DNA of 64,000 nucleotides from Candidatus Kaiserbacteria bacterium (GTDB lineage Bacteria; Patescibacteriota; Minisyncoccia; Phycocordibacterales; Phycocordibacteraceae): assembly GCA_023264445.1 (NCBI GenBank), contig JAHFMN010000003.1, forward strand, positions 18,421 to 82,420. Reading direction: 5' to 3'. The stretch's first letter is position 1; every line of letters starts with the position of its first letter. The position numbers were made by a program, and so were the translations under genes. This document shows positions 5,582 through 25,558 of this stretch, piece by piece. The notes under the pieces are model-generated. The model did no database searches. It was given only the letters and a program-made list of their open reading frames with translations, and was not told the origin of the DNA.

Positions 5582-5585
5582 ATTC

Positions 5586-6794: not shown

Positions 6795-6795
6795 A

Positions 6796-7536: not shown

Positions 7537-7539
7537 AGG

Positions 7540-9285: not shown

Positions 9286-10253
9286 ATCGCTTCTCGTTTC
9301 CGCGCGACCCAGAAAATCCCGTTACCGGGCAACGCGAATGTCAGTATAAGGAAATTGAGGGGTTTGTATATCACGTAGCGCTTCAAGAGGGTCAATATCC
9401 GGTATAACCCGAGAAGGGCCTTTTTCGTTACCGTGTTCCCTTGCCTATCGATGAGCCGGTTCAGGCGGCTGCGGACGCCGAAACAGAGCGTCGGGGCAGC
9501 ATAGAGGGGGATGGTGCCGATAGAGAGGATGTCGAAACCAGAGCTCTCAAGCAGCCGCGTGAGCGCCGGCACGGTGAAATAATTGAGGTGCTCCGGCGGG
9601 ATGAGGTGATACCACTTCCTTCCGCGAAGCCGCGCGTATACGCCGCCGAAATTCGGCACGCTCCCGACATAGAGGCCGCCCGGGACGAGTCTATGCGCGA
9701 CTTCGCCCACATGCTCTCGCGGCTCCCGCACATGCTCAAGTGTCATGATTTCAGTTATGACGTCGAAATCATGAACGGCAACGTCCTCAATAGTTCCGGT
9801 CGTGATATCTACTCCTAAATGCTTCGCTCCGATGCGCTTGGCATCCGCATCCATATCCACGCCGTGCGCATCGAATCCGCACAGTTTTGCGGCATAGCAC
9901 ATGAATCCGTGGCCGCAACCGACGTCAAGAAGCCGCTTCTGGCCCGATGAACGGTACGGTTCTATAAGGGAAAGCAGAGTGAGGTTATCTTCTATGACGC
10001 TCTTGTTCGTATCGATGAAATCCTTCGCATCTCCGTGCTCATAGATATTTGATTTTGTCCTGCTCTCGCGATTCGCAGAGTAAAACTCAGCGAGTGCCGC
10101 GGCAGAAGGTAGAGGAGATACGGTCGCGAAGCCGCATGAGGCGCAGGTGATGAGGTCGTATTGCTGATTGTCGATTCCCGTAATCCCTTCGTAGGTCAGC
10201 CTGAAGTCGCCCCCAGAACACACAGGACAGACCATGGGATAGGTCCGGCTCAT
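9282..10253 (-). CDS. SAM-dependent methyltransferase with N-terminal Zn-ribbon (TylCIII-like sugar C-methyltransferase family)
   Basis: MSRTYPMVCPVCSGG...CASCGF then LLDVGCGHGF SAM motif. The long 5' ORF extension overlaps the upstream gene, so the start was set at 10253, 8 nt after the upstream stop. Confidence 0.7.
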   Translation of the reverse strand: MSRTYPMVCPVCSGGDFRLTYEGITGIDNQQYDLITCASCGFATVSPLPSAAALAEFYSANRESRTKSNIYEHGDAKDFIDTNKSVIEDNLTLLSLIEPYRSSGQKRLLDVGCGHGFMCYAAKLCGFDAHGVDMDADAKRIGAKHLGVDITTGTIEDVAVHDFDVITEIMTLEHVREPREHVGEVAHRLVPGGLYVGSVPNFGGVYARLRGRKWYHLIPPEHLNYFTVPALTRLLESSGFDILSIGTIPLYAAPTLCFGVRSRLNRLIDRQGNTVTKKALLGLYRILTLLKRYVIYKPLNFLILTFALPGNGIFWVARKREAI

Positions 10254-10260
10254 CGCGAAG

Positions 10261-11514: not shown

Positions 11515-11535
11515 AAATAAGAGGGTGCCGGCTGC

Positions 11536-12786
11536 TTAATGCTTCATAAGCAGATCACGTACAGCGTCGGTAGCATACGCGCATTTTCCTTCCTGCACAA
11601 GCGCACTCCGATGAACGTGTTCCGCATCCCACCCGGCGAATGCATCCGCGAGATGGGTGAGCGATGTATCCGAAAAAAGGCGATCGAATGATTTCTCATC
11701 TACGAACTCTTTCGGCGCCATGCCCAAGCTCCGATACACCTTGCCGACATGATCCTTCTCGCCGAAGAGATAGAAAGGAACCTTGAGGAGAGCCGCATAA
11801 ATGCCGCTGTGCCGTCTGTTAGACACGACATATTTTGCGTGTCTGATGCAGTAGAGAAGCTCCTCGCTTGAGAGATAGAAATCGATCGGCACGATGCTTT
11901 CCTTTTTCTCACAATGCTCGTATATCTCGTGCTGGAAGTTGATGTCGCTCTCCCAATAGTCATCCAGTTCGTATGCGCAGTGAGGAACGAGAAGGACCTT
12001 GCATCCGTAGTGTGCGGCAAGCCGATCCGCGTATGCGGCAAATTGCGCGGCATATGTTTTGGAAGTGGCGTCATTCCAGAGCCAGTAATACCCGCGCACG
12101 GTGAGTGCGATGTACTCACCGGAGGAAAGGCGGGAAAATACCTCCGAAAGTTTCTTCGACTCTATGGGCTTCGCATGCCGCAGAAGGGCGAACCCGCTAT
12201 CCGCAGAAGAAACTACCTTCTCCGATGCTGTCCCGTACGTCTGTATGAGTTCGTCTTTCGTATCGTCCTCGCGCGTCGTTATGACGTCGGCATTGTCCAG
12301 GCAGAATTTCGTGAGCGCAATGCCGTATTCGGACGTCGGTCGGCGGCCGAGATGGATGCCGAAGAGGATGACTTTCTTCTGCAGGTATTTCGCGAGCGTA
12401 ATGAGATTCGCCGTATATGGCAATATCCCGCGAAAGGGCTCCGACGCCATATTGGTATTGGAATCGTCAAATGGGTCCCCGCCGATCATGAGCGCATCGG
12501 AACTTGCGATTTCCTCCCGAATAATCCGCAGATGCTCCGTAGAATCACCGGCATTAAATCCGTGGAATCGCTTGCCGGCGCTTTCCGCTTTTGACGGGAA
12601 GTCCAGATTCCGAACGCTGCGGACGCCAAATTGCGCCTCCACCTCTTTCCCTGGATGGCGGCAGATGAGTGTGACATCAAGATGAGGCATAGCTTCTCGC
12701 ATCCCGCCAAGAAATGATTGGAGCATGGAATCATCGCTTATATTCTTGAGGCCGTAAACGCTTGCGCCCGCTATGGATAATTTCAT
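11536..12786 (-). CDS. Polysaccharide pyruvyl transferase (CsaB/WcaK family), tandem paralog
   Basis: 416 aa; GASVYGLKNISDD and IGGDPFDD motifs collinear with the preceding gene. Confidence 0.65.
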   Translation of the reverse strand: MKLSIAGASVYGLKNISDDSMLQSFLGGMREAMPHLDVTLICRHPGKEVEAQFGVRSVRNLDFPSKAESAGKRFHGFNAGDSTEHLRIIREEIASSDALMIGGDPFDDSNTNMASEPFRGILPYTANLITLAKYLQKKVILFGIHLGRRPTSEYGIALTKFCLDNADVITTREDDTKDELIQTYGTASEKVVSSADSGFALLRHAKPIESKKLSEVFSRLSSGEYIALTVRGYYWLWNDATSKTYAAQFAAYADRLAAHYGCKVLLVPHCAYELDDYWESDINFQHEIYEHCEKKESIVPIDFYLSSEELLYCIRHAKYVVSNRRHSGIYAALLKVPFYLFGEKDHVGKVYRSLGMAPKEFVDEKSFDRLFSDTSLTHLADAFAGWDAEHVHRSALVQEGKCAYATDAVRDLLMKH

Positions 12787-12792
12787 GGAGAG

Positions 12793-13941
12793 TTAGTTTG
12801 GAAAATGGAATTGAAAAATCTCTTCGCCACGAATCTGGAGCGGCATCTTCTCTTTGAGGTCTTCGCCAGCGCGCTTCCCCACCACTTCCGCATACTGAAG
12901 GGCCGAGACGCCGATATCCGGGCGTAGCAGTGATAACGATTCTGCGGTCAGAATAGTTCCCTTCGCTACGGGCGCGCGCAGATACACTCCGCGCCGCGCC
13001 CACTGGCGCTCGTCCGCTTCCCGCATGATATATGAACCTTCGACACCAGGGTGCGTGACGGTCGTGCCATGAGGCGCGGGACGCTTGATGCCATCCCCTA
13101 GTGCCTTATCGAAATCCTCCACGAACTCCTTGCGGAGCTCCTTAAGAACAACTTCTTTATCCGAGCGAGCATCGATGGCGTGAATCCTTCGTACCATATC
13201 TGCGAACTCTTCGACCGACATGGAGAAAACGTCATCAATCGAGCCGCGCGCTTTCTTTGAAGTAACGTGCTTTTCGATGACGGACGCGCCCATCGCCACC
13301 GCCATAAGCGGCACCAGTACGCCGCGTGAGCCATTGTCGGAATATCCGGCGAGCACATCGAATTCTGCAGCAAACGTCTGCATCGCTCGTACATTCGCGT
13401 CTTCAAAACTCGTCGGATAGACCGATACGCATTGCAGAAGCACGATATCCTTCGCGCCATGTGCGCGGAGCGTTTCCATCGCCATACGCACTTCTTCCAT
13501 GGTAGCCATACCGGTCGACATGATGATCGGTTTGCCGAAACTCGCGGCACGCTCCAAAAGAGGCAGATTCGTAAGCTCCCCAGAGGCTATCTTGACCGCC
13601 GGCACGCCGACACTATCCAGAAACGATGCTCCATCGACATCAAATGGCGTGCAAAGCAGGTCGATGCCTCGCTCGTCGCAAAGTGCCTTCAGCTTCGGAT
13701 ACCACTCCCGCGGCGTCTCCGTAGTCTTGAAATAGTCATAGGTTCCCTTGAGGCCGGGCGTGAGCGGCACGAGCAGTTTGTCGGCTTCAAAGAGCTGGAA
13801 CTTAACCGCGTCAGCGCCTGCGTCCGCCGCCTGGGCGACATACGACTGCGCCATTTCCCAATCATTGCCATGCGTACTCGCGACCTCAAAGATGATATAG
13901 GTCGGTCGTCCGGGTCCGAGCTCTCTGGTGCCTAGGTGCAT
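12793..13941 (-). CDS. neuB: N-acylneuraminate-type nonulosonic acid synthase (NeuB/PseI/LegI family) with C-terminal SAF domain
   Basis: TYIIFEVASTHGNDWEMAQ...KFQLF...IMSTGMAT...VLLQCVSVYPT plus C-terminal SAF (GVYLRAPVAKGTILT). Start set at MHLGTRE (13941), 17 nt after the upstream stop. Confidence 0.85.
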   Translation of the reverse strand: MHLGTRELGPGRPTYIIFEVASTHGNDWEMAQSYVAQAADAGADAVKFQLFEADKLLVPLTPGLKGTYDYFKTTETPREWYPKLKALCDERGIDLLCTPFDVDGASFLDSVGVPAVKIASGELTNLPLLERAASFGKPIIMSTGMATMEEVRMAMETLRAHGAKDIVLLQCVSVYPTSFEDANVRAMQTFAAEFDVLAGYSDNGSRGVLVPLMAVAMGASVIEKHVTSKKARGSIDDVFSMSVEEFADMVRRIHAIDARSDKEVVLKELRKEFVEDFDKALGDGIKRPAPHGTTVTHPGVEGSYIMREADERQWARRGVYLRAPVAKGTILTAESLSLLRPDIGVSALQYAEVVGKRAGEDLKEKMPLQIRGEEIFQFHFPN

Positions 13942-13957
13942 ATGCGATACCACAATC

Positions 13958-14575
13958 TTATGCCGCGCGCTCCTGTTTGTCGTGCGCCGCCGCAGAATGA
14001 TAGGTGCCTGACTTGATGGCCTCGATGCCGCGCGCCTCGGCCGCAAGACGCTCTTGATACGCTCCAGTCTGTTTGACTGCATCAAATGTTTTCTGGAAAT
14101 CAGGATTATTCTCGACAAGCACCGACTCCGCAGAGATAAACTCCGGCTGTACGGCTGGCTTCACGACATGCTCGCAGAACGTGCGCAATCGCGGGATGTG
14201 ATACTCGTTTGCGACGATGAGCACGCGCGACCATCCTTCCTTCATTGCAAGCGCAAGCGATTCCTCAAGCTGGGTTCGGCTTGTTTCCGATTTTTCCTCA
14301 AGCACGATGCTCTCGCGTGCGACGCCAAGCCCGATGAGCTCGTCTGCCGCAATGCGTGCGTGCGTCGGGAGCTCGTTTCCGCGCCTTGATGTCGTAACAA
14401 TGACGGCATCCGGGAATCGCCTTGCGAGAATCGCTGCTGCCTTGATTCGTGCGTGGCCGCCAAGCGTTCCGAACGCATCTCGATCTTCGTAGGAGGTTGA
14501 ATGCCACGCTCCGGCGCGAAGTACGGAACCGGATGTGGGGATGATGATTGCGTCGGGAATCATGACTGTTTCCAT
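13958..14575 (-). CDS. DUF218 (YdcF/SanA/ElyC family) protein
   Basis: 205 aa; IIIPTSGS...VTTSRRG...EEKSETSRTQLEES...IVANEYHIPR matches the DUF218 pattern. Confidence 0.55.
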   Translation of the reverse strand: METVMIPDAIIIPTSGSVLRAGAWHSTSYEDRDAFGTLGGHARIKAAAILARRFPDAVIVTTSRRGNELPTHARIAADELIGLGVARESIVLEEKSETSRTQLEESLALAMKEGWSRVLIVANEYHIPRLRTFCEHVVKPAVQPEFISAESVLVENNPDFQKTFDAVKQTGAYQERLAAEARGIEAIKSGTYHSAAAHDKQERAA

Positions 14576-16224
14576 AACATTGGATTCACTATCTCACGGC
14601 CGATGCCCTGAAGGCGAGCTCTGATTGCTTCAATGAAACCGTCGGGGACGCTTGCACGCGCAGATGCAAGATTCCCTTCAAGCTGTGCGAGCGTCTTTAC
14701 GCCAAATACGACACGCGCGACCGAAGTAGCATGTAATGAGAAAAGGAGCGCCGCCTCCATCTGCGAGAGATTGAACTCTCGTGCAATGCGTATGAATTCT
14801 TCAAGATACGGCCGTGCGCCCGCGATGTTTGCCGGCAATTGTTCGGGACTCATGAGCAATACGCCCTGTAGAAAAGGGCTCCGCGCAAACACAGTCGTTC
14901 CCTGCTCTTTTGCCTTTGGCCAGAAATCAGTCGCGTCTAAGCGCTGGTCAAATGCGTTGTACGGCACTTCCACGCAATCGAGGCCCTGGCGCACTGCTTC
15001 AAGCGCTTCGTCCTCGTCATATACGGAGACGCCGATCCGCTCAGCAAGGCCATCTTGCTTGATAGCGCGCAGGGCATGAAGCGCATCCTCTCGAAAAACA
15101 TACCGGGAGTTGTTGAGCAGGTAGCAGGAGAGCCGATTAAGCTTGAGCCGGCGCAAGGTCTGCTCTACATCGGCCCGTATGATTGTGGCGGCATCTACTT
15201 CTCCAGCGTGCTCACCAAGCGTGCGGGGTCCGAGTTTGGAAAGTACGCTGATTTCCCCAGCGACATTGCATGTACTCACCCATTCTCCGAGAATATCCAC
15301 TGCATTCCCGTAATCACCCGCTGTATCGAAGGTAGTGATGCCTGCGGCATATGCAGCATCCAGAATGGCGAAAGATTCTTCTTTTGTCGGCTGACCGACG
15401 TCATCTAGTCCATACGTCTTTCCGAGCTGAACGGTCCCGAGCGTTAATCTCTTCATGAGACCTTTCCAGACTTCGTCTTTTTTCTTCGTCTTCGCGAGGC
15501 CTTCGTATCCGGTCCCTCCTTTATTTATTTCCAGAAGTCCCGGCTTACGCGCAAGAAGTGCAAGGATATCGTCTTTGCCGAAGACAGGGTTTGCCGGGTA
15601 TAGCTCCTCAAATATCTTCGTCGCAAATTCGAAATCTTGCTCCGTGTCCACCGACCAATGCATCGCTGAATCATCACGTTCGCCCACCGTCCATGGCAGT
15701 CCATGGAATCGCTCTGGACGGTTCTTGAAATACTGCGCGAGATGCTCGCGCTCGGAGGGCAGCCGCCCGTTCTGCGCCGCTTCCTCAAGCGCGGAGAACG
15801 CAAAGATATCGGTATCAAGCCCTTCGGGATAATTCGCTGGCGTACCTGCATACGCGAGCGGATCGTGTGCATCGATAAAATGCCGCGTCGCCTCGTCAAT
15901 CACGGATGGGTCGTGAAGAACGCAATCTCCCGTGAGGCAGACTACGACATCCGCATCTATCTCTTTCGCCGCACGGTACACGCGATCAAGCACATCGTCC
16001 TCGCTTCCGCGGAAAACGCCGACACCAGTACGGGTAGCAAGCTCGGCGACTGCATCGTCTCTTGATTTTTCTGATGTCGCCACGATGATATGGTCAATTT
16101 CTTTTGCACGCTTCACGCGCTCGAGCATGCGCGCAAGCATCGGCTCTCCAAGAATCGGCTTCAGCACCTTGCCCGGCAACCGCGTCGAGCCCGTCCGTGC
16201 CTGGATGATTGCAACGGCCTTCAT
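14560..16224 (-). CDS. CMP-nonulosonic acid synthetase-like cytidylyltransferase (PseF/LegF/SpsF family) fused to an aldo/keto reductase domain
   Basis: N-terminus MKAVAIIQARTGSTRLPGKVLKPI (CTP_transf_3). C-terminal ~300 aa has AKR features (GITTFDTAGDYGNA...). Confidence 0.75.
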   Translation of the reverse strand: MKAVAIIQARTGSTRLPGKVLKPILGEPMLARMLERVKRAKEIDHIIVATSEKSRDDAVAELATRTGVGVFRGSEDDVLDRVYRAAKEIDADVVVCLTGDCVLHDPSVIDEATRHFIDAHDPLAYAGTPANYPEGLDTDIFAFSALEEAAQNGRLPSEREHLAQYFKNRPERFHGLPWTVGERDDSAMHWSVDTEQDFEFATKIFEELYPANPVFGKDDILALLARKPGLLEINKGGTGYEGLAKTKKKDEVWKGLMKRLTLGTVQLGKTYGLDDVGQPTKEESFAILDAAYAAGITTFDTAGDYGNAVDILGEWVSTCNVAGEISVLSKLGPRTLGEHAGEVDAATIIRADVEQTLRRLKLNRLSCYLLNNSRYVFREDALHALRAIKQDGLAERIGVSVYDEDEALEAVRQGLDCVEVPYNAFDQRLDATDFWPKAKEQGTTVFARSPFLQGVLLMSPEQLPANIAGARPYLEEFIRIAREFNLSQMEAALLFSLHATSVARVVFGVKTLAQLEGNLASARASVPDGFIEAIRARLQGIGREIVNPMLWKQS

Positions 16225-16227
16225 ACA

Positions 16228-17544
16228 TCAATTCAAGCGCTGGAATCCTGTGTGGGCGACGGGACCCTTCAGCCGCTTCATGACATCACCACGCTTGACT
16301 GCTTCTGCGATGATCTTGAACACTGCATCGACTGCATGAAGATAATTTTTGATGTGTACGGTAGTGTGCGCGGCACTTGCGAAGTAGAGATTGCTTGCGA
16401 GAAATCCGCGCTCCAGCATTTCTTGCACGAAGAGCGTCTTGAGCGCTTGTGCGTTCGGATGATTGAAAGAGAAACTGGCGATCGGCATGACACCGCCCAT
16501 AGTAATCGAGAGTCCATGTTTGCGCGCAAGGCGCTCCCATCCAGCGCGGACAGTCTGTCCGTTTTTCGCGATGCGTTCCCATACTTTTATCTTTTTCATC
16601 TTCTTCAGGGTTGCAAGCGCGGCAACGGGTCCGATGCGTTCGGTCCAGTAGGTGCTCGAGATGAAAGAACCTTGCGCCGCCTCCATAACTTTCCGACGGC
16701 CGATGATAGCCGCCATCGGATAGCCATTGCTCATCGCTTTGCTGAAGACGGCGATATCCGGATTCACTTTATAGAGAAGATGCGAACCGCCGTAGGTGAG
16801 CTTCCAACCCACTGTTATTTCATCAAATACCAGTACGGCGCCGGTTTTGTCGGCGATACGACGTACCTTTTGAAGGAAATTGTCGCGTGGCTCCTCTCCG
16901 TGTATCGGCTCCATGATAATGGCCGCGAGATTCTTTCCATGCTTGCGCACGATGGCTTCAAGTTCCTCTATCTTGTTGTAGTGGAATGGGATGACCGTAC
17001 CGCGCAGACTTTTGGGCACGCCCTTCGGGGAAAGTCCTGCGAGCAGATGCTCCTTGAGGCCATCCTTGCGCGCGAGATTCGTCGCAAGATACCAGTCGTG
17101 CCAGCCGTGGTAGCCACAAAAGGCGATGACGTCTTTACCGGTAGAGGCGCGCGCGATGCGTTCGGCTATGGCCATCGCTTCCCCGCCAGTGCGCGCATAG
17201 CGCACCATATCCGCCCATGGATGGATTTTCGTGAGTAGCTCTGCGAGCTCTACTTCCTCCGGTGCATTCAATGTGGACATGGAACCCGCGTCCACGGCTT
17301 TCTTCACTGCCTTGTTCACGTCCGCATCAGCATAGCCGAGAATACAGCTTCCCACGCCCATAATGGACATATCGGTATATTTCTCCCCATCCAGATCCCA
17401 CACCTCGCATCCCTTCGCTTTTGAGTAATATGCCGGCCAATAATCCGGCAGGAACATCTCGGGCCGCTTTGAAAGAAGCTGCGTCCCGCCCGGGATGAGC
17501 TTTTTCGCTTTTTCGTAGAGTTTTTGTCCCGTATTCTTTTTCAT
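16228..17544 (-). CDS. Class III PLP aminotransferase (glutamate-1-semialdehyde aminomutase-like)
   Basis: GYHGWHDW, VFDEITVGWK, AVFSKAMSNGYP motifs. Start at MKKNTGQKLYEKAKKLIPGG. Confidence 0.8.
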   Translation of the reverse strand: MKKNTGQKLYEKAKKLIPGGTQLLSKRPEMFLPDYWPAYYSKAKGCEVWDLDGEKYTDMSIMGVGSCILGYADADVNKAVKKAVDAGSMSTLNAPEEVELAELLTKIHPWADMVRYARTGGEAMAIAERIARASTGKDVIAFCGYHGWHDWYLATNLARKDGLKEHLLAGLSPKGVPKSLRGTVIPFHYNKIEELEAIVRKHGKNLAAIIMEPIHGEEPRDNFLQKVRRIADKTGAVLVFDEITVGWKLTYGGSHLLYKVNPDIAVFSKAMSNGYPMAAIIGRRKVMEAAQGSFISSTYWTERIGPVAALATLKKMKKIKVWERIAKNGQTVRAGWERLARKHGLSITMGGVMPIASFSFNHPNAQALKTLFVQEMLERGFLASNLYFASAAHTTVHIKNYLHAVDAVFKIIAEAVKRGDVMKRLKGPVAHTGFQRLN

Positions 17545-17548
17545 ATCA

Positions 17549-18229
17549 TCATGCGCCGGGGCGGTAACCGCCACCGATTACTTTCTTGTAGAGCGTCGCG
17601 GCGGCGCGGAAGTCATCCCGGGTTTTCGCTGTTGCATGCTTCTTTGCATCTGCCGTATAGGTATATACCCGCTCAACGCGGATATAGTTGCCGCTTGCTT
17701 CGAAGAGTGCCCCGTAATCCGCTTTATACGTGAAGACGCCGGGGCGATAGCGATACGGATTCTTGCGGGGTTCTCGAGGCAAGAAATCGCAGATGATGAG
17801 GTAGCCGCCGTCTGTAATAGCACGGTCTATTTCAGCGACAGACTGAAGAAGCGTGTCACGCGAGACCCAATGAAAGGTGAACACCGCAAGAGCCAGGTCA
17901 AACGAAGCGTCCTTGACCGGAAGTTTCGCGGCTACGCCGCGCTTGAGTTCTATGCGAGGAAATTTTTTCTTGCCGGCAGCGACAGCAGACGCAGACGGCT
18001 CCACGCCGACATACTGCGCGCGCGGACGCGCGCGACGCATGGCTTCAAGCCGCCAGCCGTTTGCGGCCCCGACATCAAGCACGCGCTTCGGATGCAACCG
18101 GTGCTTCAGGATGAGCTTCTCAACGAGGTCGCTACGCATCTCTCGTGCTTCGGGCGTAAGCGCATCCGCATTGCGCGCGTACCATGCATCAGCTTCTTTT
18201 TTACTGAAAATGTCGTCTTGGTTTTTCAT
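17549..18229 (-). CDS. Class I SAM-dependent methyltransferase
   Basis: RVLDVGAANGW motif I, 226 aa. ATGA overlap with the upstream PseC-like gene. Confidence 0.75.
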   Translation of the reverse strand: MKNQDDIFSKKEADAWYARNADALTPEAREMRSDLVEKLILKHRLHPKRVLDVGAANGWRLEAMRRARPRAQYVGVEPSASAVAAGKKKFPRIELKRGVAAKLPVKDASFDLALAVFTFHWVSRDTLLQSVAEIDRAITDGGYLIICDFLPREPRKNPYRYRPGVFTYKADYGALFEASGNYIRVERVYTYTADAKKHATAKTRDDFRAAATLYKKVIGGGYRPGA

Positions 18230-19368
18230 GCGTTCTTGAGTGCCGTGCGAAGCGCTTCTGCCACGCGCTTCTGCTGTGCAGGCGTTATCTTTGCAAACAG
18301 AGGCAACGATATCTCGGCCACGACGAACGCTTGCGTCTTTGGGCAGAGTTTCTGCGAGTATCCGAGATCCTCATAGAGAGGATGCGTGTGGACGGGGATA
18401 TGATGCACCTGCACGCCGATCCCTTGCGACCGCAAGGAATCGAAGACTGCGCGGCGCTTTGAAGGGTCTTTGAGACGCAGCGTATAGAGGTGCCAGGCAG
18501 AGCGTTCAAAGGCACGTTCATCTAGCGGGAGTACGACGCCGGGAATATTCTTCAGGAGTGAGCCGTAGCGCTTCGCCGCCGCGCGGCGCTTGGCGATGAA
18601 AGAATCAAGGCGCTTCAGCTGGCTCTCGCCGAGCGCGGCGAGAATGTCCGGCATGCGGTAATTGAAGCCGAGCGCATGCATCTCCATATGCCATCCCCCA
18701 TCCTCATTGCGTCGTAGGTACAGCTTTTCTTTCGTAATGCCATGACTACGGAAGAGCCGGAGTGTACGGGCATATTCTGCATCATTGGTGGTCACTGCCC
18801 CGCCCTCGGCAGTCGTAATCGATTTGACCGGATGGAAACTGAAGATCGTCATGTCGGCAAGTGACCCTGTCTTTTTTCCACGATACGAAGCACCCAGACT
18901 TTGAGCGCCATCCTCGATGAGGACGAGCTTGTATTTCTTCGCGAGCGCGCGGAACTCTCGCATGTCTGCAGGCCGACCCGTGTAATCAACCGGCACGATG
19001 ACCTTCGTCTTCTTCGTTATGTTTTTGCGCACATCCGCGACGCTCATATTCCCTGTCGCTGGATCTATATCAGCAAATACGGGCTTCGCACCGAGATAGA
19101 GCGCCGCATTCGCCGTAGCGGCAAAGGTGAGCGCTGGCACGATGATTTCGTCGCCCTTTGTGATACCGGCAGAAAAATACGCCGCGTGAAGCGCCGCCGT
19201 TCCGGAATTGAACGTAACGGCGAACTTCGCGCCGACTTTTTTGGCGAGTGCTTTTTCAAAACGCTCGATAGCTGGCCCTTGCGTAAGCCAGCCAGACTTC
19301 AAGGTCTGCACGACTGCCTTCACGTCGGCTTCGTTTATGTCCTGCGTGGAGTACGGGATCATGCGCAT
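18226..19368 (-). CDS. pseC: PseC-like DegT/DnrJ/EryC1/StrS sugar aminotransferase
   Basis: MRMIPYSTQDINEADVKAVVQTLKSGWLTQGP...SFHPVKSITTAEGGAV (PLP lysine). The N-terminal IPYxxQ...LTQG signature is typical of PseC-type enzymes. Confidence 0.8.
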   Translation of the reverse strand: MRMIPYSTQDINEADVKAVVQTLKSGWLTQGPAIERFEKALAKKVGAKFAVTFNSGTAALHAAYFSAGITKGDEIIVPALTFAATANAALYLGAKPVFADIDPATGNMSVADVRKNITKKTKVIVPVDYTGRPADMREFRALAKKYKLVLIEDGAQSLGASYRGKKTGSLADMTIFSFHPVKSITTAEGGAVTTNDAEYARTLRLFRSHGITKEKLYLRRNEDGGWHMEMHALGFNYRMPDILAALGESQLKRLDSFIAKRRAAAKRYGSLLKNIPGVVLPLDERAFERSAWHLYTLRLKDPSKRRAVFDSLRSQGIGVQVHHIPVHTHPLYEDLGYSQKLCPKTQAFVVAEISLPLFAKITPAQQKRVAEALRTALKNA

Positions 19369-19372
19369 AAGA

Positions 19373-20350
19373 TTACTGTGTCGTGAGCGACAGCGCCATC
19401 TCCACGACCCGTTCGGTCGCACCCGTAGGCCATACCTCGCGCAGAGGACGATTCTCGAAGGGCCAGGTACCTTCCGCATATGCCGCGAGCACCCGTTTGA
19501 GTTCTTCCGGAGAATCAATGCGGGTCGTCACGCCTGCGCGGTTGCTCACTAGCTCGTCAGGTCCCTGAAGGGAAGGCCCGTAGCAGAGCACTTTTTTCCC
19601 TGCCGCTGTGGCCTGCATGAGAACGGGAGTCGCCGGACCGATGATGAGCCCGCTTTTCGAGAGCGCTTCTTCAAGCGTCGCTTCGCTTGCCATGTGCACA
19701 CGACTATCGAGATAACGATCGTATTTGTTTCTCTCATCGCGTGGATGGAGACGAATGAAAAGATTGTAGCCTTCGGGAAGCGCCGTACGTATTGCTTCAA
19801 GCATCTGATACTCGTCCGTTGTGGGAGTAGCAAAACCCGGTAGTAATGCATCCGAACGAATTGGCTGGGATATGAAAAGAATGCGTTTCTGGTCTTCGTC
19901 CGTGCGAGTGATGCCGTCGGCAAAGTGATCGAAATGCGGATTGCCGGTGATGACAAGCCGCTCAGCAGGAAATCCTTCAGCAATCATCTCTTCCTTCGCA
20001 ATATCGTCTATCACGCATACGATATCAGGCAGATACGCGAAATCCTTGGCACCGGGATTAGAGAATCTCTGCCAATAATTCGACCAGAAATCGAGTACGG
20101 CGATTACGGGTGCTGTGCCGTGCATCGCTTCGGTCACCTGCTTTTCAATGCTTGGTCCCCCGCTTGTGCCCACAACCACCACGTCGGGGTCATGCATATC
20201 ACCTTGCGGAATATCGCGTGCAGTACACATATCGCGTGCGGCCCCTTCCACTTGCGCAACGACTTCATCACCGCGTTCTATGAATGCCTTGGCAACCGGT
20301 ATGACTGAGTTCGCGCCGCCTGGATCCTGCGCTGATATGAGTACTTTCAT
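19373..20350 (-). CDS. GT-B fold protein; PseG-like UDP-sugar hydrolase or NeuC/MurG-like
   Basis: MKVLISAQDPGGANSVIPVAKAF... two Rossmann-like halves. Sits between two DegT genes in a Pse-like operon. ATGA overlap with the upstream gene. Confidence 0.5.
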   Translation of the reverse strand: MKVLISAQDPGGANSVIPVAKAFIERGDEVVAQVEGAARDMCTARDIPQGDMHDPDVVVVGTSGGPSIEKQVTEAMHGTAPVIAVLDFWSNYWQRFSNPGAKDFAYLPDIVCVIDDIAKEEMIAEGFPAERLVITGNPHFDHFADGITRTDEDQKRILFISQPIRSDALLPGFATPTTDEYQMLEAIRTALPEGYNLFIRLHPRDERNKYDRYLDSRVHMASEATLEEALSKSGLIIGPATPVLMQATAAGKKVLCYGPSLQGPDELVSNRAGVTTRIDSPEELKRVLAAYAEGTWPFENRPLREVWPTGATERVVEMALSLTTQ

Positions 20351-21549
20351 TTTTTCTTTGCCGCTGCGATGACCTCCCGCATAGCATCGGCAAACGCATC
20401 GATATGCGCCGCAGTGTAGGGATGCTGGCATACATCCGTGCCGATAAGCTCCTGCTCATGCATGCGCTCGGTCACGGGACAGATACCTTTTCGGTACTCT
20501 TGCGTCATCCCGTCGTAATCGAATGGGAAATGCGTCGCATTGAAAGCCTGTTTCTTCTGGAAAAGCGGCAAGAGATAGAGCGGCTTCACATACCCGGCTC
20601 CGATGGGAAAACCGAGCTTCTGCAATTTCGCGACGAGCTCGGCGCGCGAGATGCCGAGTTTTTTTGCATCCATCTTCATGATGTATGAGTAATAGACATG
20701 CGTATTGCCCTTCGGGATGTGCGGCGGCGTGAGCCCAGGGATGTTTGAGAGTTTTCTGGTAAGACGATTCGCAAGAGCAACACGCTTGCGGTTCAGAAAA
20801 TCAAGCTTTGACAGCTGCACCTCGGCGATAGCGGCAGTCACTTCCGTCATGCGGTAATTACTGCCGAAGATAGGTCCCGCGGCGTAGCCGGGCATGCCGG
20901 GCACGACCGATTCGCCATGATTACGTGCGAGCTGCGCGCGAAGCGCGAATGTCTTGTTATTGGTTACTAGCACCCCGCCCTCGCCTGATTGAATCTGCTT
21001 GTGCACATTGAAGCTGAAGACGCCGATGTCTCCCACTGTGCCTGTGTACTGCCCCTGCCACGTCGCTCCGGCTGACTGTGCATTGTCCTCTATGACCGAG
21101 AGCTTGTGCTTTTTGGCGAGCGCAAGGAGCGCGCCCATGTGTCCGGTCTGGCCGAAGAGGTTGACCATCATCACCGCCTTCGTGCGCTTCGTTATCTTTT
21201 TCTCCACAGACTTCGGATCAATACAGAATGTGTCGGGGTCGATATCGGCGAATATCGGCACGGCGCCGTTCATAAGGACTGCGGTTGCAGAAGCTGACAT
21301 CGTGTAGGGCGGCACGATGACTTCGTCTCCGGGACCAATGGATAGCGCGACGACTGCGCCATGCAGCGCGGTCGTCGCAGAATTGAAGGAAACGACATGC
21401 CTGACCTTAAATTTTTTCGCGAACGCCGATTCAAATCGCTTCACGACCGGACCGCCGAAAAAATCCGCGCTCGCATCGCCGACGAAGCCGGATAGCGGAC
21501 CCTTCTTAAGCACGGCGGTTACCGCTCGTATTTCGCGTGCGTCTATCAT
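20347..21549 (-). CDS. DegT/DnrJ/EryC1/StrS family PLP sugar aminotransferase
   Basis: VIVPPYTMSASA...VIEDNAQSAGA...FSFNVHKQIQSGEGG. Start chosen at MIDAREIRAV (21549); alternative M at 21594. Confidence 0.8.
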   Translation of the reverse strand: MIDAREIRAVTAVLKKGPLSGFVGDASADFFGGPVVKRFESAFAKKFKVRHVVSFNSATTALHGAVVALSIGPGDEVIVPPYTMSASATAVLMNGAVPIFADIDPDTFCIDPKSVEKKITKRTKAVMMVNLFGQTGHMGALLALAKKHKLSVIEDNAQSAGATWQGQYTGTVGDIGVFSFNVHKQIQSGEGGVLVTNNKTFALRAQLARNHGESVVPGMPGYAAGPIFGSNYRMTEVTAAIAEVQLSKLDFLNRKRVALANRLTRKLSNIPGLTPPHIPKGNTHVYYSYIMKMDAKKLGISRAELVAKLQKLGFPIGAGYVKPLYLLPLFQKKQAFNATHFPFDYDGMTQEYRKGICPVTERMHEQELIGTDVCQHPYTAAHIDAFADAMREVIAAAKKK

Positions 21550-21574
21550 GTAGACGGGCGGAAAGGTTATCTTG

Positions 21575-22564
21575 TTATTTCTTTTTTTGCGCATGTTTTT
21601 TTATTTCTTCCAAGAGTTCCACGACGGCGCGACCGTTCTCTACGCCGCTTTCTGGCCGTTCACGATTCGTGAGGTACTGGGCGGCGCGATCAAGGGCATG
21701 TGCGGGAGCTCCGCGCCGTACCGTCGCGCGTGCGCGGTCAAGCGCGCGCTCGCCTTTGTAGGAAGATGATCGGGCGGGCGTCTCAATGAGCGCATCGCTA
21801 TTATCGAGCAATGCCCGCTCGCCTTTGCTTCCTAGTATGCGGATATCAAATATGCCGTACGCCTTCTGGTCGATACTTTGCAGGACAACGCGAGTGCCTG
21901 TTTTTGTCTCCAGAACGGCGTCTACACATGAATCGCCCGATGGATGCATCGCCTTCGGATTGGTCCGTGCCCACACTGCGTGCATGTCTTCGCCGAGGAG
22001 ATACTGAAGCGCATCCAATGCATGTCCACCATTATTGTATAACCCGTTGCTGTAGTAACAGGTCACCTGCTGTATGGTGCCGAGCGCGCCCGAATGAATA
22101 TCGCGGCGCACGCGCGCCATAAGCGGTGAGAATCGCCGCTGATAGTTGACCACGAACACTCCTTTGTCTTTGGAAACCATGCGAGCTATGGCGCGCGCGT
22201 CACGTGCGGTTTCTGCAAGCGGTTTCTCGCAGACGATAGCGCGCACGCCAGCACGAAGGCATTCCTGGATAGGGACGAGACGGACAGACGGCGGCGTTGC
22301 AATCACGACGATATCAGGACGTTCTTTCTGCAGGCACTCGCGCACGGAACGGTATCGCCCTACTTTGGGAAAAATCTTTCCCGCGCGCAGGAGCGCTTTT
22401 GCGTTCGTATCAACGAGCGCAACTAATTCAGTCTTCGGGTTTGCCTGTGCGACGCCGGCATGGCTCGCCGGCTTTCTCCGAAGTGGTTCCGCTTCGTAGA
22501 GCACTCCCACCCTTCCGCATCCGATGATGGCGACGCGATACGGGGCTGGTGTGTTGCGGCGCAT
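21575..22564 (-). CDS. Gfo/Idh/MocA family NAD(P)-dependent oxidoreductase
   Basis: VAIIGCGRVG Rossmann motif, EKP motif (IVCEKPLA), 329 aa. Confidence 0.8.
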   Translation of the reverse strand: MRRNTPAPYRVAIIGCGRVGVLYEAEPLRRKPASHAGVAQANPKTELVALVDTNAKALLRAGKIFPKVGRYRSVRECLQKERPDIVVIATPPSVRLVPIQECLRAGVRAIVCEKPLAETARDARAIARMVSKDKGVFVVNYQRRFSPLMARVRRDIHSGALGTIQQVTCYYSNGLYNNGGHALDALQYLLGEDMHAVWARTNPKAMHPSGDSCVDAVLETKTGTRVVLQSIDQKAYGIFDIRILGSKGERALLDNSDALIETPARSSSYKGERALDRARATVRRGAPAHALDRAAQYLTNRERPESGVENGRAVVELLEEIKKHAQKKK

Positions 22565-22566
22565 GA

Positions 22567-23571
22567 CTACGGCGCAAAAAGGTTCTTAGCTTCTTTTTGC
22601 GAAAGGAGGAATTTCTTATTGTTGCTCATATAGAGGAATGATTTCGGGGCGGAGCGGTAGCGCAAGAGCCAGTCGGCATTGCCTCCCCTGTGCACGATGG
22701 CGAACATGCGCGGGAGCTCGCACGTGCGATGCACTTCGTACTGCGTGAGCAATACCTCGTGCAGTTTCTCGCCCGGGCGCATACCGATGACTTGCACTTT
22801 GCATTCCGGCGCAAGTAGTTTGACGACATCCATGATGGGCATGTGCTTCATTTTCGGGACGAAGATCTCGCCGCCCTGCATGAGCGCGAGCGCTTCGAGC
22901 ACGATGTCCATCACCGACTCGATGCGTATCCAAAATCGCGTCATCTCCTTATGCGTCACGGTGATGGTGCCAGTCTGTTTCTGTCGGTCTATGAGCTCCA
23001 CGAACGAGCCCCGGCTGCCAATAACGTTGCCGTAGCGTATGACGCTGAGCGCGGTGTTGCTGTTGTCGCCGACATATGAATTTGCCGCGATGAAGAGCTT
23101 CTCTGCGGCCATCTTGGTCGCACCATAGAGATTGATGGGCTCGACCGCCTTGTCGGAAGAAATAAGTAATACCTTAGACACCTTCTTATCAAGCGCCGCA
23201 TCTATGACGTTCTTGCTTCCGATGATGTTCGTCTGTATCGCCTCAAACGGATTGTATTCGATGGAGTCCACACGCTTCAGCGCCGCCGCATGCACGACGA
23301 TGTCCACTCCCTCAAAGGCACGCCGGAGACGCTCCGGATCGCGGATGTCGCCGATAAAGAAGCGCAGGCGCGGTTCATCGCGATGCAGGGCGGCGAGCTC
23401 GCTCTGCTTGAGCTCATCGCGGCTAAACACGATGATCTTGGCGATGCCGGGGACTGCCGAGAGGCGCTTGATGAAGGCACGACCAAAGGTACCGGTGCCC
23501 CCCGTGATAAGGATGGTCTTGCCCTTCAAAAAGTCAGTGGGGGCTTGCCAGGAAGCCTTTTTTATAGCCAT
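22567..23571 (-). CDS. pseB: UDP-GlcNAc 4,6-dehydratase (PseB/FlaA1/PglF-like, Polysacc_synt_2)
   Basis: ILITGGTGTFG...YGATKMAAE (YxxxK), 334 aa, typical short PseB/FlaA1 length. Confidence 0.85.
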   Translation of the reverse strand: MAIKKASWQAPTDFLKGKTILITGGTGTFGRAFIKRLSAVPGIAKIIVFSRDELKQSELAALHRDEPRLRFFIGDIRDPERLRRAFEGVDIVVHAAALKRVDSIEYNPFEAIQTNIIGSKNVIDAALDKKVSKVLLISSDKAVEPINLYGATKMAAEKLFIAANSYVGDNSNTALSVIRYGNVIGSRGSFVELIDRQKQTGTITVTHKEMTRFWIRIESVMDIVLEALALMQGGEIFVPKMKHMPIMDVVKLLAPECKVQVIGMRPGEKLHEVLLTQYEVHRTCELPRMFAIVHRGGNADWLLRYRSAPKSFLYMSNNKKFLLSQKEAKNLFAP

Positions 23572-23634: not shown

Positions 23635-24645
23635 TCAGAAATCCTTTACGCCAATCCATAGAGGCACAGGGTCGCCGCCGAGATGCCGCTTGAAGTCCGC
23701 AATGGCGGCCTCTTTCTCCGTACTGCCGGTTTGCCATCCCATATCGTACCGCTCGAACCCTCGGCGTTTGAGCTCCTGCATGATCCGCCACTGAATGAAC
23801 TGGCCGATGCCGCGCAGATTGCGATACTGCGGATCGGTCGCAGCCATGCCATAGGAAGCGCAGCGCTTATATATTGTGACGAGTGCTCCGGAAAGATAGC
23901 CGCCTGCATGCTCCTGACGGAGGAGCGCCAGGAGCGCGTGCCCAGAGCGCACGCGCCCGAGCAGCTCTCGCGTGCGCTCTGGCGACCCTATCGGCCGACC
24001 CGCTGCTAACGCATAGAGGTCGGTGAATGCTGTCCACGCCTCTTCGGTGATCGTATCGCTATCAAAGAAATCTGTCTTGTATCCCTGTTTCTCCGCAAAC
24101 GTAATATCCGACCTATTTCCTTTGGAGACGCGTGAACGGAGTGTGTCCTCGTCGTGGCGCAGGTCCATGATATACGTCACCGTGCTCGTATCGGCATATC
24201 CGAACTGGAGAAAGGGATTAGTGGCGAATGCGGCATCAGTAAGCGGGTCAATGAACATCCTGCTGCGCGCGATGCCGAGCGTGAGCGCGAGTCGATCAAT
24301 CTCTTTCATGCATGCGGCGTAGATTGCTGCCTGTTCACTCGGAGAGAGTGCGTCAGCAAGCGCAGGCGAAGGGTTCGGCAAACTGTGCGTATCGGACGGG
24401 CGTGTATTGACGCTGAAGGCGAATTCCCGTCCCTTCGTAGCGATGAGTGGCTCAATGATGAGAGGCGCGATGGCGACAAGTGTTGCTCCTTCTTTCATGC
24501 CGAAAGAACGGTCCTCGCTACTCTCATCTAGCGCGAGCGCCGCGCGCCGACCGTCGCTTCGGTGACGTATCCAGGCTCCGGGCGACGCGTCGCAGAATGC
24601 ATCCCATTGTGCATCCCCTATATCCTGATGTTGAACGACCTCCAT
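23635..24645 (-). CDS. FemAB-family/GNAT-fold acyl- or aminoacyl-transferase
   Basis: 337 aa from MEVVQHQDIGDAQWDAFCD; two GNAT-like halves typical of FemABX proteins. Start chosen 5 nt after the upstream stop. Confidence 0.5.
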   Translation of the reverse strand: MEVVQHQDIGDAQWDAFCDASPGAWIRHRSDGRRAALALDESSEDRSFGMKEGATLVAIAPLIIEPLIATKGREFAFSVNTRPSDTHSLPNPSPALADALSPSEQAAIYAACMKEIDRLALTLGIARSRMFIDPLTDAAFATNPFLQFGYADTSTVTYIMDLRHDEDTLRSRVSKGNRSDITFAEKQGYKTDFFDSDTITEEAWTAFTDLYALAAGRPIGSPERTRELLGRVRSGHALLALLRQEHAGGYLSGALVTIYKRCASYGMAATDPQYRNLRGIGQFIQWRIMQELKRRGFERYDMGWQTGSTEKEAAIADFKRHLGGDPVPLWIGVKDF

Positions 24646-24649: not shown

Positions 24650-25558
24650 CTATCCCTGCGTTTTGCGTACGATCTGGATGATTCGCTCGATATCGCGGAC
24701 CGAAAGGGCCTGGTGGCACGGAAGCGCGACACATTCGACGAAGCGAGGATTGAGCATATTGCGATTGACATCGAAGTGATACACACCGCTTTCAAATCCT
24801 GCACGTTCGAGAGCGCGTGCGACCAAAGCATTTTTTGCGCCGCAAAAGAGCGGCACCATCCAAGGCACGACCGTGCTATTTGTCATGAGCTTTTCTTCTT
24901 TTGTGCCCCATACCGCCTTCCGTAGCATTTCGAAATTTCGACGACGGACCTCGACTGCTCCTTTTTTGTACTCAAGGAGAGCGACGGCTTTCGCGGCAGC
25001 CGGACATTTCGTCAGTCGGTCATAGACCGCATAAGCGCGCGCCACCTCCGTGCCGCCCTTACGCAAGCCTTGCATTACCTCGCGTTCGCAGCGCTTGTCG
25101 TGATGACGATACTCGCGTGCGACGAACTGCCGCAGTTTCCTATCTTTTGCGGAGAGCGCGCCGCCGACCGGCGTTGAAAAGAATTTCGAGAGACTCCAGA
25201 GAGCCACTCTGCCGAACGTCCCGACCCGTTTGCCGTTATAGGTGCTATCGATAGTATGCGCACAGTCTTCGATGAGGTATAGCTTGTGTGTGCGGGCAAA
25301 CTTCTCTATCGCTTCCATGTGTTGCGGGAATCCCCACTGGTGGTACACCATAAGCGCTCGGACTTTCTTGTTCATCACCATTGTCGGGAAACAATAGGCA
25401 TGCATTGTCATGTACACCCAGGTGCCGAGCCATTCGGACACGAGCACCTGCGCGCTCTTGTCGTTGAGTACCCTTTCGTGCCGTAAGAAGCGCAGTATGA
25501 CCGCAATAGCCGATTTTCCCGAAAAAATATACTGCGTTCCTTTTGGGAAAGGGCTCAT
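24650..25558 (-). CDS. Short, divergent DegT-family PLP enzyme (lacks about 40 N-terminal residues)
   Basis: LIEDCAHTIDSTYNGKRVGTFGRVALWSLSKFFSTPVGG aligns with the DegT PLP-lysine region. No room for a longer N-terminus because of the upstream methyltransferase. Confidence 0.55.
   Translation of the reverse strand: MSPFPKGTQYIFSGKSAIAVILRFLRHERVLNDKSAQVLVSEWLGTWVYMTMHAYCFPTMVMNKKVRALMVYHQWGFPQHMEAIEKFARTHKLYLIEDCAHTIDSTYNGKRVGTFGRVALWSLSKFFSTPVGGALSAKDRKLRQFVAREYRHHDKRCEREVMQGLRKGGTEVARAYAVYDRLTKCPAAAKAVALLEYKKGAVEVRRRNFEMLRKAVWGTKEEKLMTNSTVVPWMVPLFCGAKNALVARALERAGFESGVYHFDVNRNMLNPRFVECVALPCHQALSVRDIERIIQIVRKTQG

Follow-up and report, generated by a model that had tools for sequence, protein, structure and literature searches.

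We analysed a 64,000-nt stretch of Candidatus Kaiserbacteria DNA (contig JAHFMN010000003.1 of assembly GCA_023264445.1; hereafter, the window), which carries at 12793-23571 ten genes, all on the minus strand, embedded in a glycan cluster of ~50 kb (777-51992). Within a surface-glycan locus, these genes probably form the nucleotide-sugar core, which makes a CMP-activated 5,7-diamino-3,5,7,9-tetradeoxy-nonulosonic acid by a route that begins with the steps of the pseudaminic acid (Pse) pathway. From high to low coordinates, they are as follows:

22567-23571, minus strand: PseB-type UDP-GlcNAc 4,6-dehydratase (inverting), 334 aa; Polysacc_synt_2, 4.1e-90
21575-22564, minus strand: Gfo/Idh/MocA NAD(P) oxidoreductase (Gfo), 329 aa; PF01408, PF22725 and PF02894
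20347-21549, minus strand: DegT-family aminotransferase no. 1, 400 aa; PF01041, 6.6e-92
19373-20350, minus strand: GT-B-fold protein of a 'hypothetical' family restricted to the candidate phyla radiation (CPR), 325 aa; no Pfam or NCBIfam match
18226-19368, minus strand: PseC (UDP-4-amino-4,6-dideoxy-N-acetyl-beta-L-altrosamine transaminase), 380 aa; TIGR03588 and PF01041, 4e-122
17549-18229, minus strand: S-adenosylmethionine (SAM)-dependent methyltransferase, 226 aa; Methyltransf_11/25/12
16228-17544, minus strand: class-III aminotransferase, similar to glutamate-1-semialdehyde (GSA) aminomutase, 438 aa; PF00202, 1.7e-46
14560-16224, minus strand: fusion of a cytidylyltransferase (residues 1-~250; PF02348, 4e-31) and an aldo-keto reductase (AKR; ~257-554; PF00248, 1.4e-27), 554 aa
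13958-14563, minus strand: DUF218/YdcF-like cytoplasmic protein, 201 aa; PF02698
12793-13941, minus strand: NeuB-family synthase with SAF domain, 382 aa; PF03102, 3e-74, and PF08666

Pfam and NCBIfam scans confirmed every domain that a preliminary description of the locus had named (dehydratase, DegT proteins, Gfo, methyltransferase, class-III aminotransferase, cytidylyltransferase-AKR fusion, and NeuB with SAF), and its ~50 kb glycan super-cluster is likewise real; the DUF218 gene was absent from its gene list. In the window, whose G+C content is ~55%, minus-strand genes run almost continuously from ~52 kb down to 0.8 kb, and the 21 genes between pseB (23571) and position 777 are separated by no gap of more than 25 nt, so that the operon-like packing is real. 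The statement that most genes are linked by ATGA overlaps has to be withdrawn for 12793-23571, where only 3 of the 9 junctions are of this kind and the remainder are gaps of 2-25 nt. That impression probably came from six consecutive GT4 glycosyltransferase genes at 43923-50472, all five junctions of which are ATGA. Start codons were picked from the sequence and match independent gene calls on two metagenome contigs encoding an identical NeuB; the start of DegT no. 1 at 21549 likewise matches a metagenome gene call. Since the gene order recurs on many independent contigs from metagenomes and metagenome-assembled genomes, the arrangement is not due to chance. The host belongs to the Patescibacteria (CPR) and is Kaiserbacteria-like: source-named homologues of NeuB and of the 325-aa protein come from Candidatus Kaiserbacteria, Giovannonibacteria, Parcubacteria and the 'Patescibacteria group', and the syntenic relatives include Parcubacteria GW2011_GWA1_56_13 (NeuB 74% identical) and Kaiserbacteria CG10_..._56_12 (NeuB 70%).

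We compared the candidate entry enzymes with curated family models and solved structures. The dehydratase scored 384.2 bits against the PseB model TIGR03589, 94% of the cut-off of 407.75, with FnlA as the next family at 213 bits. Its best match in the PDB was H. pylori FlaA1/PseB (2gn4; 3.8e-91, 308 bits), ahead of CapD (215 bits), the 5-epimerising CapE/FnlA (197 bits) and the retaining PglF/WlaL (130 bits). The SSDKA and YGATK motifs are both kept, including the catalytic Tyr, and retaining PglF is not known to have the Tyr corresponding to that of YGATK. The protein thus shows the features of PseB (a soluble Polysacc_synt_2 enzyme with Asp-Lys and Tyr-x3-Lys), though formally below equivalog level, and groups with PseB rather than with generic epimerases or retaining PglF. 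The aminotransferase encoded at 18226-19368 scored 476.6 bits against the PseC model TIGR03588, above the cut-off of 423.5 and hence at equivalog level; the preliminary description had listed PseC-like and other DegT aminotransferases, and it is this protein that is PseC, while 20347-21549 encodes a different, not PseC-like, DegT.

The legionaminic alternatives scored far lower at this step, with 52 bits for LegB (cut-off 475) and 254 bits for LegC (cut-off 420). None of the window proteins scanned matched PF02350 at the gathering score, the operon contains no NTP_transferase gene, and the family scans of the window found no PtmE-like or NeuC-type gene at threshold; the marks of a legionaminic pathway (LegB and LegC at cut-off, PF02350, a GlcN-1-P guanylyltransferase) are therefore missing here. 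The scores of PseB and PseC relative to those of LegB and LegC, together with the PDB ranking, thus indicated entry by the pseudaminic route. Of the parallel with the pse and ptm loci that had been drawn earlier, the pse entry (PseB and PseC) stands, and the legionaminic ptm part does not. On family scores and PDB ranking, we also rejected readings of the locus as a legionaminic, sialic, KDO8P or DAHP pathway.

The NeuB-like protein is a member of the NeuB superfamily, with PF03102 (250 bits) and SAF PF08666 (32 bits) both above their gathering scores, and it counts neither among the true sialic-acid synthases nor among the KDO8P/DAHP synthases (the latter at E~1e-5). It scored 268 bits against NeuB_NnaB (TIGR03569, cut-off 399.65) and 253.5 bits against PseI (TIGR03586, cut-off 340). 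Neither the TIGR03569 score nor the full pair of metal-binding His residues of NeuB sensu stricto was present, and neither the equivalog score nor a tree grouping made it a PseI. Its top solved relative is B. subtilis SpsE (1vli, 3.8e-43), marginally closer than PseI or NeuB; in the barrel, it is about equally distant from SpsE, PseI and two NeuB structures (33-36% identity). A search of 5.8 billion proteins placed the synthase in a clade (P0001-P0087) with at least 50% identity inside and a sharp fall to 40% or less outside, some members of which carry the JGI label LegI. In a neighbour-joining tree of the TIM-barrel domain, built from four PDB-anchored references and 55 homologues, this CPR-only clade was monophyletic in 100 of 100 replicates, and it was sister to the PseI group in 26% of 200 bootstraps. 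The phylogeny called for in the preliminary description thus yielded a separate CPR clade without reaching a PseI, LegI or NeuB assignment: class assignment by tree fails at this bootstrap value, and the NCBIfam scores (268 vs 253.5) are likewise ambiguous.

The clade is further marked by Asn203 (in GYSDNGS) at the position of the metal-ligand His215 of N. meningitidis NeuB, in all 22 members sampled. The second metal ligand, His236, is kept as His225, and E19, K47, K117, S201, D202, E223 and H225 are invariant across the clade; an insertion of ~40 aa separates the barrel from the SAF domain. Among the outgroup sequences, 34 of 37 have His at the first metal position, and the other three have Asn and group with the PseI branch. 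One of these Asn-bearing proteins, P0118, is a cytidylyltransferase-NeuB fusion whose gene has a PseB-PseC fusion gene and a GNAT gene as neighbours, which indicates that the Asn substitution occurs in apparently working pathways. We considered whether the His-to-Asn change marks a dead enzyme and found this unlikely, because Asn is invariant in a conserved clade and also present in P0118. The essential metal is bound by two His side chains in the NeuB crystal structure, and there are KDO8P synthases that do not depend on a metal (PMC12531865). Several relatives contain another NeuB-family gene besides, of generic type (27-34% identical; L048:16276-18790, L007:16676-18499 and L013:13775-15522), which in L048 comes after a cytidylyltransferase gene and a DUF218 gene of its own, in L007 comes after DUF218, and in L013 adjoins a cytidylyltransferase. 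From the second genes of L048 and L007, the DUF218-NeuB link may reach beyond the CPR-specific clade.

CMP activation is assigned to the N-terminal domain of the 554-aa fusion. This domain gave 37 bits with PseF (TIGR03584), over residues 4-71 only and far from the cut-off of 205.7, and 75 bits with KdsB-type models; its best PDB match was 6oew ('Cytidylyltransferase', 4.9e-38). The cytidylyltransferase and AKR are fused in the window and in L003/L014/L021, and are separate genes in L004, L005, L006, L011 and L012. Homology thus assigns four predicted steps, namely those of PseB, PseC, the NeuB-family condensation and the CTP-dependent activation.

No PseH or typical GNAT was found among the ~50 window proteins scanned, which include only FemAB/GNAT_6-like proteins and ATP-grasp ligases, and neither GNAT (PseH-type) nor GT28 (PseG-type) genes were found in the window or in the scanned unassigned open reading frames (ORFs) of its relatives. 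It could be argued that the pathway is nevertheless an ordinary canonical pseudaminic one, with the PseH, PseG and PseF functions too divergent to be recognised or encoded elsewhere, and with DUF218, AKR and the class-III aminotransferase as bystander tailoring enzymes. PseB and PseC are indeed canonical, the His-to-Asn NeuB P0118, on the PseI-grouping branch, is clustered with a fused PseB-PseC and a GNAT, and the loci were inspected over ~20 kb each. We regard this explanation as very improbable, as GNAT/GT28-type genes are absent from compact loci such as L011, L008 and L034, DUF218 is repeatedly fused to core enzymes, and the scores of the cytidylyltransferase on PseF (37 bits, cut-off 206) and of NeuB on PseI (253 bits, cut-off 340) are well under the cut-offs.

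To describe the conserved neighbourhood, 17 genome and 43 metagenome loci were fetched, and their ORFs were annotated by BLAST and jackhmmer against the window proteins; the counts refer to a non-redundant set of 20 in-clade loci, each extending 6 kb or more to either side, and to genes within 9 kb of NeuB. PseC and the cytidylyltransferase were present in all 20 loci, followed by the methyltransferase (19/20), an ATP-grasp ligase (18/20), DUF218 (16/20), PseB (at least 15/20), the class-III aminotransferase (13/20), Gfo (11/20), AKR (7/20) and the 325-aa protein (3/20). L011 has a compact version of the locus, in which GT4 and a homologue of a 628-aa GT-B protein described below precede seven genes, PseB, PseC, class-III aminotransferase, cytidylyltransferase, AKR, DUF218 and NeuB.

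The 201-aa DUF218 protein reaches the PF02698 gathering score and has a YdcF-like fold: its predicted model is a YdcF/USP-like nucleotide-binding (HUP-like) fold, with no N-terminal membrane segment. The DUF218 domain of ElyC is periplasmic, behind two membrane helices; in the present subfamily (216 representatives at E<=1e-30), such a hydrophobic segment at the N-terminus was seen in only 1 of the 145 members sampled. Relatives encode DUF218 fused to NeuB (P0024 and P0079), to the cytidylyltransferase (435-aa proteins of L038, which have orthologues of equal size in L031 and L008, and P0303), to AKR (P0275 and P0322) and to Gfo (P0382), and fusions of NeuB with the cytidylyltransferase also occur. 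We infer from these neighbourhoods and fusions that DUF218 belongs to the enzymatic core of the pathway; our best guess is release of the sugar from UDP, the role of PseG. A literature search linking DUF218 to sialic or nonulosonic acid synthesis returned nothing.

The same fusions might be taken to indicate two independent modules, in which PseB and PseC (with Gfo, DegT no. 1 and the 325-aa protein) would make UDP-activated di- or triamino hexoses that glycosyltransferases use directly, and NeuB, cytidylyltransferase, AKR, class-III aminotransferase and DUF218 would make an unrelated CMP-ulosonic acid or CDP-amino-alditol from another precursor. They join DUF218, AKR, Gfo, cytidylyltransferase and NeuB mutually, and none includes PseB or PseC; a Gfo, a DegT and an epimerase_2-like protein make up the known composition of WbpB/WbpE/WbpI-type modules for 2,3-diamino sugars, with support from PDB and model matches; and reductase-cytidylyltransferase fusions are known for CDP-ribitol. 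We give this division little credence, since PseC occurs in 20/20 loci of the NeuB clade, usually adjoining, the order PseB-PseC-NeuB-cytidylyltransferase is found in L008, L009, L031, L034, L038 and L045, the NeuB-cytidylyltransferase fusions point to the product of NeuB as the substrate of the cytidylyltransferase, and no alternative hexose-supply genes (NeuC or a ManNAc pathway) are present.

Within the single pathway that we prefer, the class-III aminotransferase appears to work with an oxidoreductase. AKR or Gfo was found in 12 of the 13 loci with the class-III gene, and neither in 5 of the 7 loci without it (Fisher p=0.007); in L007 and L010, which are without AKR, a Gfo gene immediately precedes the class-III gene. 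The aminotransferase scored 275 bits, under the cut-off, with PRK06209, and its PDB matches were GSA aminomutases (1.5e-44), an aminopentol aminotransferase, and the sugar C-6' aminotransferases 7lm0/7lld (~1e-33). In the AKR domain, the Asp, Tyr and Lys residues are kept. The methyltransferase at 17549-18229, whose start overlaps the pseC stop by ATGA, matched the Pse-associated methylase model TIGR03587 weakly (39 bits, cut-off 112).

Only in the nearest relatives do Gfo, DegT no. 1 and the 325-aa protein all have close orthologues, those of Gfo (59-63% identity) being limited to L003/L014 and L004/L024. Gfo matched models of inositol 2-dehydrogenase and archaeal UDP-GlcNAc 3-dehydrogenase weakly, with 4hkt (1e-15) as its best PDB entry. 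DegT no. 1 scored 227 bits on the PseC model, far under the cut-off, and is similar to perosamine synthetase (3bn1, 8.6e-59), BtrR (2c7t), the Kdo8N transaminase KdnA (5k8b) and WbpE (3e-37). The 325-aa protein has a confident predicted GT-B model, nearest to UDP-GlcNAc 2-epimerases including the hydrolysing LegG/NeuC; the TGNP, HP and Asp residues are invariant in its family, a few relatives being annotated as polysialyltransferase-like. It is therefore a candidate UDP-sugar 2-epimerase/hydrolase or glycosyltransferase, and from its model it could alternatively be a NeuC/PseG-like hydrolase or a nonulosonic acid transferase. From these similarities of DegT no. 1, Gfo and the GT-B protein, the trio resembles a 2,3-diamino-sugar module of the WbpB/WbpE/WbpI type. 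The earlier label of a PseG/NeuC-like GT-B protein was thus right at the level of the fold; since the trio is confined to the closest relatives, this type of pathway does not have the 325-aa protein as its core UDP-sugar hydrolase.

This protein is central to another explanation, namely that the pathway yields a stereoisomer of legionaminic or some other non-Pse type, with the 325-aa GT-B protein as a NeuC/LegG-like hydrolysing 2-epimerase and NeuB condensing the 2-epimerised hexose. The protein shares the TGNP...D and HP motifs with the epimerase_2 family, the best single PDB match of the synthase is SpsE, which belongs to a legionaminic pathway (PMC7439481), and JGI labels some clade members LegI. 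We consider it improbable, because LegB and LegC lie far below their cut-offs and PseB and PseC at or near theirs, the dehydratase gives 308 bits with inverting PseB compared with 130 bits for the retaining PglF, and the 325-aa gene occurs in 3/20 loci that share the same NeuB clade.

We thus return to the pseudaminic-type route, which would proceed as follows. PseB would convert UDP-GlcNAc into a 4-keto-6-deoxy sugar of L-arabino configuration, PseC would aminate it at C4, the NeuB-family synthase would condense the free hexose with phosphoenolpyruvate (PEP), and the CTP_transf_3 enzyme would activate the product with CTP. Judging from the neighbourhoods and fusions, orthologues of PseH, PseG, PseI and PseF would be lacking across the lineage, and DUF218 would provide the missing core step, most likely by freeing the sugar from UDP. 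The 4-amino group (N7 of the product) may be acylated by ATP-grasp and/or FemAB-like enzymes in place of the acetyl-CoA-dependent PseH. AKR (or Gfo) may oxidise a hydroxyl group, and the class-III aminotransferase may transaminate the resulting position to give a further amino group, with C8 as the best guess. C8 is attractive because oxidation there gives a methyl ketone, and class-III transaminases generally accept ketones of this kind. A pentadeoxy-nonulosonic acid is known in nature; it exists in the O-antigen of Tenacibaculum (Flexibacter) maritimum, according to a review. A search of the literature on a 'triamino' nonulosonic acid found nothing relevant. Methyltransferases and pyruvyl-transferase-like enzymes may tailor the sugar, and the trio may be an accessory module of the closest relatives, contributing either a NeuC/PseG-like step or a 2,3-diamino sugar of its own. 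Transfer of the nonulosonic acid to a lipid- or protein-linked glycan would be the task of the 628-aa GT-B protein, and an MsbA/PglK-like ABC protein would export that glycan.

In sum of its parts, the locus is Pse-like at entry, condensation and activation; its first two enzymes alone are canonical, and the others, DUF218 among them, are lineage-specific substitutes. The core of the earlier reading, a 5,7-diamino nonulosonic acid pathway with extra modifications in a divergent uncultivated lineage, is supported, and the two outcomes named beforehand as refuting it (a synthase grouping with true sialic acid or KDO8P synthases, a dehydratase grouping with generic epimerases) were not observed. 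A more specific CPR version would combine DUF218 as the PseG-type UDP-releasing enzyme, an ATP-grasp enzyme in place of PseH, a 5,7,8-triamino nonulosonic acid formed through AKR/Gfo and the class-III aminotransferase, and an Asn-bearing synthase that is metal-altered or metal-independent in the manner of KDO8P synthases. This combination is put forward tentatively, and we think it rather unlikely.

Several observations weigh against the proposed pathway. The dehydratase lies just under the curated PseB cut-off (384 vs 407.75). With a bootstrap of 26% for the link between the NeuB clade and PseI, the Pse-type stereochemistry of the substrate at the condensation is tentative. All steps after PseC are inferred, and the genomes may have PseG and PseH genes outside the ~20 kb examined per locus. 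In the window, the catalytic His of the AKR is replaced by Asn (YLLNN); this holds for the window only, as the fused L003/L021 proteins and the stand-alone orthologues have His (YLLHN or YLFHS). As for DUF218, the best-studied members YdcF and ElyC are without known enzymatic activity, the gene was not found within 9 kb of NeuB in 4 of the 20 loci, and the distant member P0272 sits in an unrelated context, which also refutes the idea that DUF218 is exclusive to nonulosonic acid loci.

Comparison with characterised systems places the locus apart. As in Campylobacter jejuni and Helicobacter pylori, PseB and PseC are followed by a NeuB-family PEP condensation and CMP activation. In contrast to the PseBCHGIF set of these species, no PseH, PseG, PseI or PseF orthologue is recognisable here, so that with four of the six defining enzymes not recognisable the locus falls outside the canonical set. 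The synthase forms a separate CPR clade with Asn at His215 and the ~40-aa insertion before SAF, DUF218, AKR, the class-III aminotransferase and the ATP-grasp ligases are extra, and there is no flagellin context.

The B. subtilis sps system includes SpsE (1vli), the top solved relative of the synthase, and the window cytidylyltransferase may be SpsF-like rather than PseF/NeuA-like. The two differ in the Pse-type entry here and in the lack of DUF218, AKR and class-III aminotransferase from sps. The SpsE synthase and the SpsF cytidylyltransferase belong to a legionaminic-acid pathway (PMC7439481). A comparable set of genes is found in the lipopolysaccharide (LPS) cluster lp12_0779-0787 of Legionella pneumophila other than serogroup 1, a nonulosonic-acid O-antigen locus in which a 'GSA aminomutase', an acylneuraminate-cytidylyltransferase-like protein and an aryl-alcohol dehydrogenase are encoded beside PseG (PMC3694923). 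By annotation, this trio can be likened to the class-III aminotransferase, cytidylyltransferase and AKR of the window, aryl-alcohol dehydrogenase being the usual label of an AKR, and such a module is therefore probably not CPR-specific. The Legionella cluster differs in having recognisable PseG, GNAT and HisH/HisF-type amidotransferase genes, and no DUF218 is reported from it.

In Tannerella forsythia, a modified Pse (Pse5Am7Gra) caps a surface-protein glycan, and BFO_1060 (Tanf_01245/TFUB4_00887) represents a family of transferases for Pse and legionaminic acid derivatives, of a GT-B/TagB-like type with HP and D/E-D/E-G motifs (PMC5420450). The 628-aa GT-B protein matches the BFO_1060 model weakly (36 bits vs a cut-off of 200), and T. 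forsythia differs in its canonical PseBCHGIF set. Finally, the WbpB/WbpE(/WbpI), KdnB/KdnA (8-amino-Kdo) and aminoglycoside C-6' modules also pair an NAD(P) oxidoreductase with a pyridoxal phosphate (PLP)-dependent aminotransferase. The similarity is at family level only, and here an AKR, not an Fe-dependent alcohol dehydrogenase or FAD enzyme, partners a class-III aminotransferase.

Nonulosonic acids are best known from pathogens, where they are associated with host mimicry. In the library searched, no paper tied nonulosonic or pseudaminic acids to Patescibacteria/CPR, and a large phylogeny of nonulosonic acid synthases names no Patescibacteria/CPR phyla (PMC8208679). The window devotes ~50 kb to the glycan cluster, of a genome that is probably near 1 Mb; one related locus (L045) lies on a contig of 1.02 Mb. 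If the conserved Pse-like operon is what it appears to be, tiny and probably episymbiotic cells would invest many genes in an acidic, heavily tailored surface sugar, which could plausibly serve host attachment or phage evasion. The fusions and neighbourhoods furthermore suggest a biochemical role for DUF218 that can be put to the test; UDP release would, if true, be the first enzymatic function in this widespread family, for which no activity is known. They also define a NeuB variant without one of the metal ligands.

The operon is flanked by further candidate transferases and tailoring enzymes:

23635-24645, minus strand: FemAB/GNAT_6-like acyl or aminoacyl transferase; PF13480/PF02388, with a weak match to TIGR04421 (FemAB_IMCC1989)
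24650-25558, minus strand: atypical short DegT-like PLP protein; PF01041, with a weak match to TIGR04422 (PLP_IMCC1989)
28077-29963, minus strand: GT-B protein, 628 aa; weak PF02350/PF04464
4811-12786, minus strand: tailoring genes identified by family scans, in the same gap-free run downstream of NeuB

The FemAB-like and short DegT-like genes lie immediately upstream of pseB, recur as a pair after PseB-PseC in L048, and are candidates for an N-acylation step. Farther upstream follow methyltransferases and a second FemAB-like protein, and then the 628-aa GT-B protein, whose C-terminal 145 residues gave 35.9 bits (4.6e-9) with NF046086 ('BFO_1060 family glycosyltransferase'), short of the cut-off of 200. 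A 31%-identical homologue lies just upstream of pseB in L011, and the protein is a candidate nonulosonic acid transferase.

Downstream, NeuB is followed by two CsaB-like pyruvyl transferases, a methyltransferase, an acetolactate-synthase-like thiamine pyrophosphate (TPP) enzyme (528 bits with TIGR00118, cut-off 538), a FabG-like short-chain dehydrogenase/reductase (SDR), an ATP-grasp ligase, a 256-aa protein of unknown family, an MsbA/PglK-like ABC exporter, and a pair of GT2 and PMT_2 genes. L003/L014/L006 keep the gene order of 4811-12786, and L004, L010 and L012 keep part of it. Right after NeuB, at 10261-12786, the two pyruvyl transferase genes are paralogous CsaB/WcaK-like 'polysaccharide pyruvyl transferase' genes and are kept in L003/L014, L006 and L020. 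The module at 4811-9285, comprising the TPP enzyme, the SDR, the ATP-grasp protein (similar to L-amino-acid ligases) and the 256-aa protein, may serve to make an unusual N-acyl group and to attach it.

The rest of the cluster encodes GT9, GT4, GT2, GtrA-like and PMT_2 proteins, sugar epimerases and dehydratases, a GDP-mannose dehydratase, a B12-binding radical-SAM enzyme and the six GT4 enzymes. The radical-SAM enzyme (40215-41711) has HpnJ-, PhpK- and AprD4-like matches, all under cut-off, which suggests sugar C-methylation or radical dehydration. Two pairs of GT2 and PMT_2 (GT-C) genes, at 777-2988 and 32126-34682, the second with an opposite-strand GtrA-like flippase gene at 34200-34682, resemble systems of the GtrABC/ArnC-ArnT type for extracytoplasmic glycosylation from polyprenyl-phosphate sugars. 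Two plus-strand islands (26280-26984 and 38612-40197) break the minus-strand cluster and may be later insertions; each contains an FkbM-type methyltransferase gene, and the second also contains a GT2 gene. At the upstream edge of the cluster are genes for a protein with lamin-tail and PKD domains (52032-53417), which may be located at the surface or act as an acceptor, and for a TrwB/TraG-like coupling ATPase (53424-55190).

Across the cluster, a Shine-Dalgarno-like GGAG, GAGG or AGGA was found within 20 nt upstream of 1 of 29 gene starts, and translation initiation in the host seems largely independent of such sequences. Beyond the cluster, the minus strand carries a 16S rRNA gene (59638-61105), followed by tRNA-Ile(GAT) (59295-59372). 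No 23S rRNA was detected in the window at the Rfam gathering score; in its place are two MurD-like Mur-ligase genes (56140-57408 and 57983-59389) and a VanY-like gene, and the rRNA genes therefore appear to be unlinked. In its longest form, the ORF of the second Mur ligase (57983-59389) overlaps the tRNA-Ile gene.

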